Source: Mytilus edulis
Lineage: Eukaryota
Length of the DNA stretch: 64,000 bases
Assembly: GCF_963676685.1 (NCBI RefSeq)
Contig: NC_092352.1
Coordinates: forward strand, 40,362,001-40,426,000
Direction of reading: 5' to 3'
Shown here: positions 12,713-58,657 of the stretch, piece by piece
Layout: each line of letters starts with the position of its first letter
How positions within the stretch are numbered: the first letter of the stretch is position 1
Position numbers and translations under genes: made by a program
The notes under the pieces: model-generated
The model's database searches: none
What the model saw: only the letters and a program-made list of their open reading frames with translations
What the model was told of the DNA's origin: nothing

Positions 12713-13413
12713 TCAATTTAATAATCAATATTTATAAAGCAAGACAGAGACATATATATATACATAATCAACTGGTCTAAACATCAACCCAACAATAGAT
12801 CTGTAAATTTGCTTTCGCAAATTTTTTGTTCTTCCCTCGCCGGGATTCGAACCCATGCTACTGAGATATCGTGACACCAAATCGCCTGCACTGTAGCCGC
12901 CCCGCTAGACCACACGACCACCTGGGCTTCACAATAATAAAGTTGTCGGTGGTCGTGTGTTACCTTTCCTCGTCAGTTTTAACTGTAGCCGTCCCGCTAG
13001 ACCACACGACCACCTGGGCTTCAGAATAATAAAGCTTTCGGTGGTCGTGTGTTCCCTTTCCTCGTCAGTTTTAATCTAGCGTCGTACTACAGTACATGAT
13101 ATATAAGGCATGGAGATGATATTGTTACAGATCAGCTCAATTATATATAGTAAAGGATCCTACAAATTAATGCAAGATACAGTCACAGAAAATAATTATA
13201 TACTGACTCAGACGTACAAATATATATATAGGCGATCCGATGGATACATCTGTTGTAGAGTTGTCACTGACTCAGACGTACTTATAAATATAATTATTTT
13301 CTGTGACTGTATATTACATTAATTTGTAGGATCCTTTACTATAGATAATTTAGCTGATCTGTAACAATAACATCTTCATGCCTTATATATCATGTACTGT
13401 AGTACGCCGCTAG

Positions 13414-13464
13414 ATTAAAACTGACGAGGAAAGGTAACACACGACCAGCGAAAGCTCTTTTAAT
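13414..13464 (+). ncRNA. Putative minimal type I hammerhead ribozyme
   Basis: attaaaa-CTGACGA-g...c-GAAA-gc-TC-ttttaat. Stem I is perfectly complementary (13414-13420 with 13458-13464), the core boxes are intact, and stem III is a palindromic AGCT mini-stem (dimer-type). Stem II is weak. Two further copies lie on the minus strand within ~12930-13077. Confidence 0.55.
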
Positions 13465-13468
13465 GAGA

Positions 13469-13563
13469 GCCCAGGTGGTCGTGTGGTCTAGCGGGACGGC
13501 TGCAGTGCAGGCGATTTGGTGTCGCGATATCACAGTAGCATGGGTTCGAATCCCGGCGAGGGA
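13469..13563 (+). ncRNA. tRNA-derived Pol III promoter segment (not a functional tRNA)
   Basis: A-box-like TGGTCGTGTGG and perfect B box GGTTCGAATCC at 13543-13553. Cloverleaf stems do not close. Inverted copy at ~12834-12928. Confidence 0.7.
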
Positions 13564-14467
13564 AGAACCAAAAATTTGCGAAAGCAAATTTACAGATCTA
13601 ACATTGTTGGGTTGATGTTTAGACGAGTTGTATATATACATGTGTATATCTGTCTCTGAGCAAGATATTGGTTGGTAACAAATATAAATATGGACCACTG
13701 AATTCAAATACAATGTAAACAATAAACACTAGCACATCATAGAGTGAGTCTTATTTTGAAAATTTTGAAAGAAAATCTCTGTATTAAAGTCCGTGGAAAT
13801 ACGCGTTTTCCTGTGCAAAGCAAGTTGCCTTTGTCATGGAATAGAAGTTTAGTAAACATTAACTTGAAAGAAGTCTGCTGGAAAACTATTTTAACAGTAT
13901 TTTTTCATGACGCATTGCAGGGTAAGTGTATGTAAAATATGTGTTCCTAAAGGAACAGATATAGCATTGTTTCTAAGTTTCCAAAAGAACTTCTGTTAAG
14001 AAGAAGACGCATCTACCGACAGGTGACAAGAATAATTATAAAATTGATTGGCAGTAACATATTTAAATTAGAGTTATCTCGCTTTAATCACAGTTTACCA
14101 AATGTTCAAACGGGAATAAAATTAGTCTCCAAGATACGATTTAGTATTCACAATTAAATGATACTCGAAACACAATAAATAATTCAGTTATATCTCCACA
14201 TACTAAAATGTGGAAACGTTCAACGCTTTTCCAACATAATTAAATCACAAGAAGCATTCAATATATATATGTAGTGTACGTAATAACATTTTTAAGAAAA
14301 GACTAGTTTCAAAAATCAAGCCTTTTATTTGTTTTTCTGTGTGTACAGTCATATTTGATGCATTTCATGCGAAAAAAACTTCAAACTTTAAGCATTGTCT
14401 GCGTTTCCAAAGATTAATCTAATTTCTGAACCTTCAAAGTACATGTATTGTCTATTTTCTTTTAATA

Positions 14468-14649: not shown

Positions 14650-15370
14650 AATATATTGGAGATTTATCCGTTAACTTAAAAAAAAAAAACACCCCACACA
14701 TCTCCACTCAATTATGAAAACTGTAAGGAAAAAAGAGAAACTTTACATATACGTTGCGCACGAGGTGGTACCAATTCCATTTTGCTATAGATTAGCATAA
14801 AAAATAAATACGTAGACTGGTCAGTTCGATAAAAAATACAGTGATTTCTGATTGAATTCATCACATTAGACTTGAAATTAAAGAAAAAAAAAGAACCGAA
14901 ATTTAAAATACCATGAATTATAACACTGAATTATCCCATTTTTAAACAAAAACGTAATGTCCAACGTTTCATTTTGTGTGCAAAAGATCAGAGTTCCGTT
15001 TCGTTCCTACGGTATTTTTTCTCCGATCATTGTAAAACTTCTCAAACACTGCTATTGTTAAAGTTATTCGCGTGTTAAAGCAAAATCAATATCACTGAAA
15101 CCGTAATCTGGAAAATGTTATTTTTGTAAATGGTGGATAAAAAAACTTAACACTAAGATTAATTAATCAGTGAAACAAGACCTACAAAAATCTGAAAATG
15201 ACGAAAAATAACAGTCAAATTCTTACTAGTAAGAGTTATTGCCCATAAATTACAATTGTGTACTACTTCAAATACGTCCGCCAAATATGTGCGGCCGTAT
15301 AATGGTATGGCGATGTCGTCCGGTCACGGTCGTCGTCTGAAGCATTTTGGTTTCTAGGCAATAGCTTAGG

Positions 15371-15407
15371 CAGAGACATATAATACAAATTGTATTATAT
15401 GTCTCTG
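15371..15407. mobile_element. 37-bp palindrome with 7-bp TSD (candidate P-element excision footprint)
   Basis: GCTTAGG|cagagacatataatacaa-a-ttgtattatatgtctctg|GCTTAGG, with perfect 18-bp arms. Confidence 0.8.
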
Positions 15408-17618
15408 GCTTAGGTATAAGTGCCGGTATGGATCTCTATGAAAGTGTACCAAATGGTTCTATAAAACAATAGGAAGGTTGGGATTAATTTTTGGGGTTAA
15501 TGTTCTATCTGTTTAGGGATGACTGGCCAAAATAAAGCAGTTTCTTGTTTCAGGACAATAACTTGGGTATAAGTGTATTGATCTATACAGAATTGAAGCA
15601 CAAGGTTCCATACATCAAATGAATGGTTGCGATCATGATTTTGGGTGTTATGACCCACACCGTCTTGGGTGCAAGGGCAAAAACAATGATTTTCTAGTTT
15701 CAAAACAATCACTTGAGTATAAGTCTGTGGATATTTATGAATATGTCATGACCATAAGGTTTCATACTTGAAAAATAATGTGATTGATTTTGGAGTTTTG
15801 GCCTGCTTTTAAACTAGTTCTCATTGCGGGGTCCAAATGGTTCGAAAGTAAACTTTGTTTGATCTCTTAATAAAAACAACATAAATGATTTGGATTCTTT
15901 GATATTTATGCTAGATCAAACTGTGTATTAAGAATTTAATTTTTTGGTCCCCATTTCATATGTGGTACGAGTGCCAATGAGACAACTCTCCATACAAGTC
16001 ACAATTTGTAAAAGTAAACCATTTTGATACATGTATTAGACCGTTTGTTTTCTCGTATGAATTGATTTTTATTTGTCATTTAATGGCCTTTTATAGCTGA
16101 CTATGCGGTATATGAGCTTTGCTTATTAATGAAGGTCATATCGTGACCTAAAGTTGTTATAATTACTGTGTCATTTGGTCTCTTGTAAAAGTTGTCTTAT
16201 TGGCAATCATATCACATCTTCTTCTTTATACATAAATCCAGTGGGCCCGAGAAAAGTTATTTCGTAGTGCATTTCTTTTGGACAATAAATTCATATCAAA
16301 AAAATTCGCACCTAGAAAAGCTAGTCTACCAGCTCTAACACAAAATATGGTAAATTCTGTGTTAAGGCGGTTTAAAATTCAGTTTGACAGCTTCAGACAT
16401 TCTTATTTTGATCTTTTGTAACTGGGCCAAATGACTACTAAGCATAAAGATTCAGCACCCATTTTTTTTACATGCAATTTTATCCCCTTACTTAATATTT
16501 CATGCATAAATATCAAGATGTACATTGGGAAAATGTATGAAAAAAATTTGCAAGTTATACACTGTTTACATGCACTAGAGACTATAATTCCTAATACCGC
16601 AGCCCCACTAGGCCACGATCACGATCTGTGAAAAAATACAAATTTTGATGATCGTAGTACGATCGTGTAGATCGCAGTGACGTCGCGCAAGATACTGGTG
16701 ACAATTTGAAGGTGATTCGAGAAAAATCGGCGAAAAGGCTAACTGTCCGTTTAGGACGCAACAATTTGCAGAATCGCTAAATAATTTTCGTTACCCAATC
16801 TAATGGCAACAAAATATCTGTTTTTCATGATATTTTTTTCACGAATAGGTTTCGATTTGAAGCGCTAAATTTTATGAAATAGGCAATTTTGCCGTGTAAT
16901 GCGTAACATTGAACATTGAGATCTCCAAACATTTTTGAGAATGAAATATGGATTGAGTAGCCAAAGGTAGTTCTCATTTGGAAGGAATTAAGAACCATAT
17001 GTAAAGTTTTGAATTACATAATTTTACTTACATATATGACGTCATACATGTAGAAAAATGACGTCATAGCAACTTTTTGATCTTGTAATGGTGACAAATA
17101 ATCTAGACTCCAACTGCAAACTTTGAAGATCAAATTCATATACTGAAGGTAATTTTAAAAGGATATCGTTTATATTTATAATTTATAAATTACAAACATT
17201 TCTGTTTAAATTGGTACCAAACTTTTTGAGTTTACTTGTTTTAAAAAAAAACTATTGAAAAAATTTAAAATCAGAAAAAATGTCCCGTATCATCTGAAAT
17301 CCAAACAAATATTCCATTTTGACGATTTCGGGATCTACGATGTATCGCGATTAAATCAGAAGAAAAATACTGATACAGATTTCAAAAATTACAACAAATA
17401 CTGAACATGATAATATAAATACTGGCTGTTTTTATATTTTATCCTTTTCGCAAATAAAGAAAAGAAAAATCAGAAAAAATGTCCAATGAGACAAAAAACG
17501 TCGAAAAATAATGAAACGTCATATTTCACACAGAGTCAATACGCAAAAGAAATTATAAGAAGAACTTGTAAAGAATCGATCTCCAAACATGAAACGATAT
17601 GGGCATGTTTTTGCCTTA

Positions 17619-21274: not shown

Positions 21275-21456
21275 AATATAATATATATATATATATATAT
21301 ATATAAGTACGTCTGAGTCAGTGACAACCCTACAACAGATGTATCCATCGGATCGCCATCAATGATGGTGATACATGGCTGTGTACATAATGTATATACA
21401 ACTCGTCTAAACATAATGTTTAGACGAGTTGTATATATATATATATATATATATAC
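21275..21456 (-). mobile_element. Short fragment of the hammerhead/tRNA-like unit embedded in (TA)n
   Basis: 21303-21357 is the reverse complement of 13231-13285, and 21399-21414 is the reverse complement of 13615-13630. A 16-bp inverted copy follows, with (TA)n on both sides. Confidence 0.85.
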
Positions 21457-52100: not shown

Positions 52101-53462
52101 CACAGTTTAAATAGTCACTATCAATTTAATGACATGTAAGATATGAAGAAAAGGGGTTGTAACGGTACAACTAACAACAATATCCTTGTTGTCTTTTGAA
52201 AGCTTCAAAATATTAAATTAAAGAATACATCGATGATCGTCTTGCAATGGCGAGTTATCTCGGACAAACCAAGACACTGCTTTAAGTCAAGACAACGCTT
52301 AATTGTAATCGGTATACTAAATAGGTTTAAACAATACACTTTTAAAAACCGATTACTTATATATATCAGATCGAGAACATCTTATAGTAATGTGACATAG
52401 ATATGAACCCCGCTTTGTACATAACCGACATGGCGACCATGACTCTGTGTTTAACGTGCTATAAGTAACTATAGGTGAAGTTCACAGGAAGACATCTTAT
52501 TACTCTGCCCAGACACACAGTTCTGACCCTGCGATCAGACACGTCTTTGCTCTTAGTGCCGTCTGTGCTTAGGGGAGTAGCAGCAGATATCCACAATTTT
52601 CAAGTCTATAACTTTAACCGTCCGGAATTAAATTACGACCGTTTGCATAGGAAAGTAGCAGGCTTCCAGGAGACAAACATGGTGGGTTAAAGAAAAAAGA
52701 GACAAGGCATAAATGAGATAAAATATTACAGTTAATATTTTTTAGTTGATAATATAACTTTACTTAAACTAGTACACTTCATTTTAAAAATTTCGGAAAG
52801 AAGAAGCAGTATGTTTTTTATTTGCATTTTTTGTTTGTAAAATGCATAACGTCTAGAACGAACGCCAGGCACTAAAGACGTGAGATGTATAAATACTGAA
52901 TAACCATTCAAAAGAAGGAGCCTGTAATTCAGTGATTGTCGTTTGTTGCTATGTTGCATATTTGTTTTTCGTTCATTTTTTGTACATTAATTAGGCCCTT
53001 AGTTTTCTCGTTTGAATTGTTTTTGTCATTTTTCATTGCTGGACCCTTTCTGAAATACTATGCGGTATAGGCTTTGCTCATTGTTCAAGGCCGTACAGTG
53101 ACCTGTAGTTGATAATTTCTGTGTCATTTGATCTTTTTGAATGAGTAGTCTCGTTGGCAATCATACCACATCTTCTTTTTCATAATAGCAAACGATATAA
53201 ATGTATTGTATTTTACATGTACGGTTTTTTATGAATTATTAGGTGTCTTCATTTTTAAGAACAATTATTAAATGCTTATAAGGAGTAAGCATGTTGTCAT
53301 GAAGTCACACATTTTAAAAACATTTAATTTTGTTCAAGTTACATGCGTATATTGGTTATTTGTGTTTGATTTAGAATTGACAGTATTTGTACCAAGAGCG
53401 ATAACTCTAATTTGTTCTTATGACTTGAACGCAGAGCACAGATAGATAAATGTCTACTTGAC

Positions 53463-53501
53463 CAAGGATTTGTATAGTATTGTTTACTATACAAATCCTT
53501 G
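53463..53501. mobile_element. 39-bp palindrome with 7-bp TSD (candidate P-element excision footprint)
   Basis: ACTTGAC|caaggatttgtatagta-ttgtt-tactatacaaatccttg|ACTTGAC, with perfect 17-bp arms. Confidence 0.8.
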
Positions 53502-53769
53502 ACTTGACTAATCGGTTGACTTCATTAGTTCAGAATTAAGGTCTTAGTATTAACAAAACTTATATCTACACATGGTTTTCATATGGTATATTCCATTCCT
53601 TGGATTTTTTTTCACTTATTTTATTCGAAGCAAGGAAATTATCTAAAGGCTTCTATATTATTTTACTGATACAGGAAAACAGGTGAACCTTCATTATTCA
53701 TAAGGATACTATTATAATGTTCCCTGTCTCAGCATTCTTACTTGCATATCACCACCACAGAAAAAAAGA

Positions 53770-58312: not shown

Positions 58313-58657
58313 CCACAGACACTTGTTTCTGTCAATGTGGGGGTTACTATCAACACCCGTACGAAAGTGATTTCGTACGGGTGTGGATAATAAACCCCAC
58401 ATTGACAGAAACAAATGCATGTGCTCACAACTGTAAGTGACAGGTTAAGGGGTGTAACTGTCATGTGACTGAGTGCCAGAGTGGACAGCACAGGCACTTG
58501 TTTCTATCTGAGACTACTATAACACAGTTTATAGTGTTATATAACACAGTTTATAGTGTTATATAACACAGTTTATAGTGTTATAGTAGTCTCAGTTTCT
58601 ATCCATGCATTGATATTGATAGTGGGTCTTCCCATGGATAGAAACGAGTGCCTGTGG
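58313..58657. mobile_element. Double-hairpin MITE
   Basis: Outer TIR ccacagacacttgtttct and agaaacgagtgcctgtgg. Near-perfect ~110-bp hairpin at 58313-58422 and a second hairpin at ~58489-58657 with the same terminal motif. Confidence 0.75.
58508..58595. mobile_element. 88-bp palindromic insertion with TSD, nested in the MITE (candidate excision footprint)
   Basis: TTTCTAT|ctgagactactataacac...gtgttatagtagtctcag|TTTCTAT with 18-bp arms and a centre amplified about 3x. Can also be read as a 9-bp TSD GTTTCTATC. Confidence 0.7.

Follow-up and report, generated by a model that had tools for sequence, protein, structure and literature searches.

Short palindromes between 7-bp target-site duplications in the Mytilus edulis genome as probable P-superfamily excision scars with family-specific arm lengths

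The best-described system close to the elements considered here is the Drosophila P element, whose overhang is 17 bases long (PMC7776569). In the portions of that review available to us, the order and mechanism of P strand cleavage are given as not known, and the 17-base overhang is treated as a peculiarity of one enzyme. The same text describes a strand-transfer complex in which the non-transferred strand pairs again, through its 5' part, with the transferred strand, and gives no base numbers for it (PMC7776569). At Drosophila P donor sites, incomplete synthesis followed by end joining is among the junction classes described in the accessible part of a study of their repair (PMC2895639). Galileo and 1360 are other P-superfamily members in Drosophila (PMC4168063, PMC2775673, both available in part). 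Within the literature covered, which consisted of partial texts, nothing was found on natural P scars across a mollusc genome, on overhangs of a length other than 17 bases or on a tip-repeat rule.

The structures described here share much with Drosophila P. As far as the available texts go, the likeness extends to outer stubs of the terminal inverted repeat (TIR) lying between two copies of the target-site duplication (TSD), to blunt, short-microhomology and templated-insert joints together with one-sided products of aborted gap repair (PMC2895639), and to a homologous transposase with an RNase H and a GTP-binding domain (PMC7776569). Unlike in Drosophila, the TSD is 7 bp rather than 8, the stubs end family by family at 18-20 bases rather than at 17, the putative scars are natural and number in the thousands in an assembled genome, and the parent elements reach 8-15 kb and carry a second open reading frame (ORF). 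Galileo has mostly 7-bp TSDs with the palindromic consensus GTANTAC (PMC4168063), and a similar TSD bias is found here. However, its TIRs are described as long and internally repetitive (PMC4168063, PMC2775673), whereas those of the parents in families A-D and K measure 27-35 bp (32 bp in family A). Zebrafish Pdre2/THAP9 is, like the present case, a non-fly P-superfamily system excising its own element, although in the accessible text Pdre2 has a 13-bp TIR and an 8-bp TSD (PMC10983969).

The window, by which we mean the whole 64-kb stretch of DNA analysed, contains four such structures. All four had been claimed in the preliminary description, and all are present where it placed them and with the TSDs it gave. 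Their parts, in window positions, are as follows.

Site 1, 15364..15370, no strand assigned: left 7-bp TSD (GCTTAGG), direct repeat
Site 1, 15371..15407, no strand assigned: family A scar, 37 bp, 18 + 1 + 18, TSD GCTTAGG
Site 1, 15408..15414, no strand assigned: right 7-bp TSD (GCTTAGG), direct repeat
Site 2, 53456..53462, no strand assigned: left 7-bp TSD (ACTTGAC), direct repeat
Site 2, 53463..53501, no strand assigned: family B scar, 39 bp, 17 + 4-base filler + 18
Site 2, 53502..53508, no strand assigned: right 7-bp TSD (ACTTGAC), direct repeat
Site 3, 58501..58507, no strand assigned: left 7-bp TSD (TTTCTAT), within the left arm of a small host palindrome
Site 3, 58508..58595, no strand assigned: family C scar, 88 bp, 18-bp arms, TSD TTTCTAT
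Site 3, 58596..58602, no strand assigned: right 7-bp TSD (TTTCTAT), direct repeat
Site 3, 58633..58656, minus strand: opposite arm of the host palindrome, with one copy of the 7-mer only
Site 4, 12738..12744, no strand assigned: left 7-bp TSD (AGCAAGA), direct repeat
Site 4, 12745..12768, plus strand: left part of the A2 scar, 14 bases matching the A2 TIR, then TA-rich filler
Site 4, 12769..13630, no strand assigned: nested palindromic non-autonomous element, 862 bp, boundaries approximate
Site 4, 13631..13658, minus strand: right part of the A2 scar, matching the outer A2 TIR at 17/18 bases, followed by TG and a TA run
Site 4, 13659..13665, no strand assigned: right 7-bp TSD (AGCAAGA), direct repeat

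At site 1 both arms are the complete outer 18 bases of the family A parent TIR. At site 2 (palindrome arms of 17 bp, TSD ACTTGAC) both arms are trimmed, falling short of the 20-base maximum of family B, and the filler TTGT equals bases 8-11 of the family B TIR and was likely templated. The arms of site 3 keep 19-20 and 18 parent bases, and the joint between them is repeated as a 22-base tandem unit, likely the product of iterative templated synthesis. The opposite arm of the host palindrome at this site is an internal empty-site control. By its matches to the A2 TIR, site 4 is a scar of A2, a sister family of A, with a palindromic element nested inside: the whole span of 12745-13658 measures 914 bp with 8 exact terminal bases and TSD AGCAAGA, the 862-bp element sits within the TA run of the scar, and the right part resembles an uninterrupted 34-bp A2 scar at another locus (L101; TG, TA run).

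A scan of the window for arms of at least 10 bases, a 7-bp TSD and a length of at most 300 bp returned exactly sites 1-3, and the same scan on 30 Markov simulations returned no structure in 27 and one in 3. Across the genome (1.37 Gb), exact outer 17-mers occur 1,629 times for family A, 1,262 times for C and 1,824 times for B, against 1, 0 and 0 for the respective reversed-pattern controls. Chance palindromes are ruled out by the simulations and these controls.

A different 33-bp palindrome (16+1+16) lies in TA runs at window positions 21399-21431 and at L281:1049. It shares its ends with the 862-bp element nested at 12769-13630 and may be the scar of a TA-targeting family with an even-length TSD.

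Full-length elements of the kind anticipated by the preliminary description were found: parents measured in kilobases that share the termini of the short elements, have TIRs of 32-35 bp in the families of the window sites, are flanked by 7-bp TSDs and contain P-transposase sequence. The 7-bp TSDs flank the parents of A, A2, B, C, D and K as they do the short elements. The family B parent is 9,827 bp long and the family C parents are 11.5 kb and 15 kb; all have perfect 7-bp TSDs and transposase frames. Family D, with a 7,850-bp parent, was found via its transposase, and short D elements occur genome-wide. Perfect TSDs also flank an A element of 6,508 bp and two A2 elements, each about 5.9 kb long, all of which contain C-terminal transposase fragments. 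In the listed set of 18 two-ended A elements the TSD matches at 7/7 positions in 13, at 6/7 in 3 and is absent in 2. The preliminary description had assigned CA...TG ends to the superfamily, whose TIRs measure about 31 bp. Families A, A2, B, D and K do begin CA, but family C begins CT, so that all of them share the terminal C only.

Subfamily B2 has a 930-amino acid open transposase frame, which matches PF21787, PF21788 and PF21789 and whose sole match among PDB sequences is the Drosophila P transposase (6P5A, E 3.2e-15). When aligned to 6P5A, its residues D507, D615 and E866 fall in motifs matching the DDE triad, D615 and E866 in a stronger aligned stretch and D507 in a weak one, and residues matching the GTP-contact motifs are apparent in the frame. 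Identity to the B2 frame is 67% in B, 37% in C and 29% in D, and is 62-79% in the C-terminal fragments from A and A2, the only transposase remains found in those two families. A PF21787 profile search of the genome gave 47 matches. When the first set of two-ended A elements was searched by tblastn with 20 P transposases there was no match, and the link from A to a transposase came later, through a second ORF, of which the A copy is 34-38% identical to the B copy. This ORF, of 350-430 amino acids, is conserved in the families with 7-bp TSDs (L151:2911-3990, L193:467-1684, L194:2082-3134, L195:795-2093), and has 46 matches genome-wide; its sole Pfam match was to a weak C2H2 finger, in L195. By their TSDs, TIRs and transposase sequences, the parents of these families belong to the P superfamily.

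No THAP domain was matched in the long transposase frames, nor was one seen by eye in the upstream cysteine-rich frames; small exons could hide one. The transposase frame of family D (L194:6332-6721, minus strand) opens with a cysteine-rich CxxC...CxxCxxC stretch in which no THAP is recognisable. This N-terminus may resemble a RAG1-type N-terminal finger; a search of PDB sequences with it gave no meaningful match.

The genome also holds a separate P-type family of 8,154-bp elements with 606-bp TIRs and 8-bp TSDs (L203:2685-10838 and L202; G000:C6:89044984-89053137). With about 10 near-identical copies it looks recently active; L204 and L201 are relatives. Besides a P-type transposase frame (PF21787), these elements contain an ORF of about 1,090 amino acids that is convergent with it; in L204 this ORF has a PIF1 helicase and a PHD finger. 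A literature search for the combination of P transposase and PIF1 found nothing.

The short elements are 24 to 91 bp long and vary at their centres. Some are joined bluntly and some through 1-2 bases of microhomology; others have at the joint a short insert copied from the arms, at times reiterated, as in the 22-base unit of site 3. In one-sided products one end extends along the parent and the other stops at or below the cut-off (L292, L298, L276, L264, L270 and L257, and elements of C3, C10 and C13). As far as the available text allows comparison, these match the 'SDSA+EJ' class and the junction tables of Drosophila P (PMC2895639). The TSDs show a bias towards palindromes: of 168 strand-symmetrised reads of 84 TSDs, 104 have T at position 2 and A at position 6. 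For 11 of the 114 scars tested, the collected loci include an empty paralogous site where the TSD stands in exactly one copy, in addition to the internal one of site 3; a stricter pattern search among the same loci found no empty paralogs of the four window sites. The site 1 scar is present in contigs of three of the four other runs checked (X5, X15 and X16), and among the matches listed in the four runs there was no full or empty allele. The preliminary description had held that identical central spacers in many copies would speak against excision; among 117 elements, no insert-bearing core was shared between unrelated flanks. Its reading of the palindromes as scars of P-superfamily excision is backed by the parents with transposase, the varied spacers and the empty paralogous sites with a single TSD copy, and we consider it very likely that the short palindromes are P-type excision scars.

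Under this reading, each palindrome would consist of the two outer ends of a P-superfamily transposon joined head to head between the two 7-bp TSD copies. The transposase would make a staggered cut, with one strand severed flush at the 3' end and the other nicked 18-20 bases further in. Single-stranded tails would be left at the donor, 18 bases long in A, A2 and D, 19 bases in C and 20 bases in B. Host end joining would then seal the tails bluntly, through 1-2 bases of microhomology or with templated inserts, and some products would reflect one-sided gap repair that halted early. That the palindromes arose as donor-site scars in this way, by staggered P cleavage and end joining of tails of these lengths, is likely in our judgement.

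The depth of the cut was read from TSD-flanked short elements after paralogous flanks had been collapsed. Samples of ends were taken in consecutive genome order. In family A base 18 was retained in 26/36 and base 19 in 1/26, the sample for this family also including hand-chosen pairs with both ends intact, so that full-length arms are inflated in it. Family D retained base 18 in 12/12 and the next base in 1/12. In family C base 19 was retained in 31/42, base 20 in 10/31 and base 21 in 0/10, the base-20 G being mostly supplied by the partner arm. The edge is leaky in family B, where base 20 was retained in 20/25 and base 21 in 7/20. Simple joins give the same limits: the longest arm needed is 18 bases in A (11 joins) and D (5 joins) and 19 in C (19 joins, of which 5 fit either 19 bases without microhomology or 20 with one), and in B 20 bases suffice for 27 of 28 joins, a single outlier needing 23. 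The preliminary description had supposed that the 17-nt stagger of Drosophila operates in this lineage, which is not supported because the match of the arms to the parent runs for 18 bases in A and D, 19 in C and 20 in B before it breaks off. From these repair products we infer a long stagger in these families, and overhangs that are probably family-specific at 18 bases in A and D, 19 in C and 20 in B, rather than 17.

The bases that follow the cut-off offer a possible reason for its position. In A, B, C and D they repeat tip bases 3-8, the two sequences being GAGATT and GAGACA in A, GAGATT and GAGACT in C, AGGATT and AGGATT in B, and AGGAGA and AGGAGG in D. Among 10 registers, that of the cut-off is the best copy of tip bases 3-8 in C and B and tied for best in A and D, and 4-6 matching bases are permitted exactly at the cut-off in all four families. 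The change from GAGA to AGGA occurs at the tip and the inner copy together. Less certain than the cut depth itself is the proposal that the enzyme nicks just before the inner copy, which, once the cut is made, would base-pair with the transferred strand at its tip, in the manner of the Drosophila strand-transfer complex; the nick is taken to be set by the inner copy because re-pairing needs an inner copy of the tip. If so, overhang length would follow the TIR sequence and may differ between the two ends of one element (19 and 18 in family K), and would thus be an evolvable family trait. We consider this plausible, with somewhat better than even odds.

Cut-offs for families K, H1 and G were predicted in writing before the search. 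At one end of the family K parents the inner RGGAAT lies at base 20 (5 ends) and at the opposite end it lies at base 19 (4 ends), predicting cut-offs of 19 and 18. Among the 14 scar ends there are 9 with 19 bases followed by T, 1 with 18 followed by T (this one in an 18+2+19 scar), 1 with 20 and 3 that are trimmed; several of the 19-then-T ends can equally be read as 16+16 joins. The K prediction is largely borne out, with the qualifications that the inner copy begins with another base than predicted and that, under literal scoring, base 16 does equally well at the long end and base 15 does better in one copy of the short end. For H1 (predicted cut-off 16) there were 30 matches against 25 in the chance control, mostly the ends of about ten full elements; no two-sided scar was among the 30, and one one-sided case keeps 15 bases (L460). 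Family G yielded no parent among 15 matches to a 15-mer query, which spanned a joint. In all, the inner-repeat rule draws on about three independent lineages: A/A2/C, B/B2/D and K. Family G itself (7-bp TSD, ends CAGGGAC) was seen as scars only (L387, L071, L463-L477), among them one in which a G end appears to be joined with an end of family B.

The coincidence of the cut-off with a conserved inner motif could also arise if a protein on that motif, such as the helix-turn-helix (HTH) domain of the transposase or an IRBP-like host protein, blocked sister-templated repair synthesis or an exonuclease, so that the cut-off would mark the block and not a nick. In the accessible text, the HTH domain of the transposase contacts the TIR in its inner half, and IRBP18/Xrp1 take part in repair of the donor (PMC7776569); the one-sided repair products show in addition that templated synthesis happens. 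However, according to the available text, Drosophila forms the same junction classes without Rad51, at overhangs made by the enzyme (PMC2895639), and the inner motif here co-varies with the tip, which re-pairing explains and a simple roadblock does not. We regard such a block as improbable and continue to favour a nick.

Slightly less probable again is a fixed 17-base stagger as in Drosophila, with bases 18-20 supplied later by untemplated tailing or short templated repair. Base 18 is A in families A and D, A is the base most easily added without a template, and untemplated addition could supply it there; 17+17 joins do exist, and short gap-repair extensions occur (L090, L383). Yet most C ends keep C and then A, and most B ends keep A-G-A, which random tailing would not produce, and aborted synthesis should decay gradually and not halt at 18, 19 and 20 in step with the inner motif. 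Full-arm joins, moreover, are 18+18, 19+19, and 20+19 or 20+20. Family-specific staggered cleavage remains the reading that we adopt for the arms.

Distinct cores account for 20 of 25 in family A, 34 of 40 in C, 29 of 43 in B and 7 of 9 in D. Some cores recur among these 117 elements, with a 36-bp A core found 5 times, a 35-bp B core in 6 flank groups and a 29-bp B core 5 times, and the single repeated insert-bearing core lies in paralogous flanks. It is very unlikely, and the least probable of the readings considered, that the short elements are self-propagating micro-MITEs descended from a few short master copies moved in trans by P transposases, because, although recurrent cores at unrelated loci and the large excess of short elements over parents could be read in that way, every core recurring at unrelated loci is a simple join that repair can make repeatedly, no insert-bearing core is shared between unrelated flanks, the short elements are without the inner TIR that the transposase contacts, and their lengths are spread over the whole range given above.

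When the sample proportions are scaled up by the 17-mer counts, families A-C are estimated to hold roughly 2,400 short elements that are flanked by TSDs and have an intact 17-mer, about 0.1 per 64 kb. The preliminary description had called excision scars common on the basis of 4 in 64 kb; they do number in the thousands genome-wide, but that density overstates the genome average, and the window is well above average because three are found in it against the estimated 0.1. Only 109 of the 1,629 family A 17-mers run on into the next two bases of the parent. Ends lying in elements of at most 125 bp with a 7-bp TSD make up 37/61 of those sampled in A, 51/72 in C, 54/74 in B and 12/30 in D, the remainder being parents, decayed copies or one-sided elements. 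A de novo palindrome scan of 985,487 bases in 241 sequences, a set enriched for the scar families and from which palindromic TSDs were removed beforehand, found 61 short palindromes with 7-bp TSDs, 60 of them C-initial, against 0 with 6-bp, 2 with 8-bp and 4 with 9-bp TSDs.

Units containing scars have been amplified in tandem arrays at three loci (G000:C13:50613446-50618998, C1:104921152-104921331 and C2:8699917-8708206), with periods of about 58, 53 and 1,655 bp. Scars of one P family are also nested in scars of another (L027, L072, L252, L417:1787-1850), which suggests that AT-rich scars are favoured insertion targets.

If the scars report the depth of the cut, they would provide a natural series of 18-, 19- and 20-base overhangs and a testable sequence rule for the inner nick, and the genome holds long open transposase frames with which the nick rule could be tested. 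Should the inner-repeat rule be true, overhang length would be readable from genomic scars or predictable from the TIR alone. The scars would also constitute thousands of heritable end-joining outcomes at defined, non-complementary breaks, giving a record of DNA repair in an animal without genetic tools and a count of past excisions for each family.
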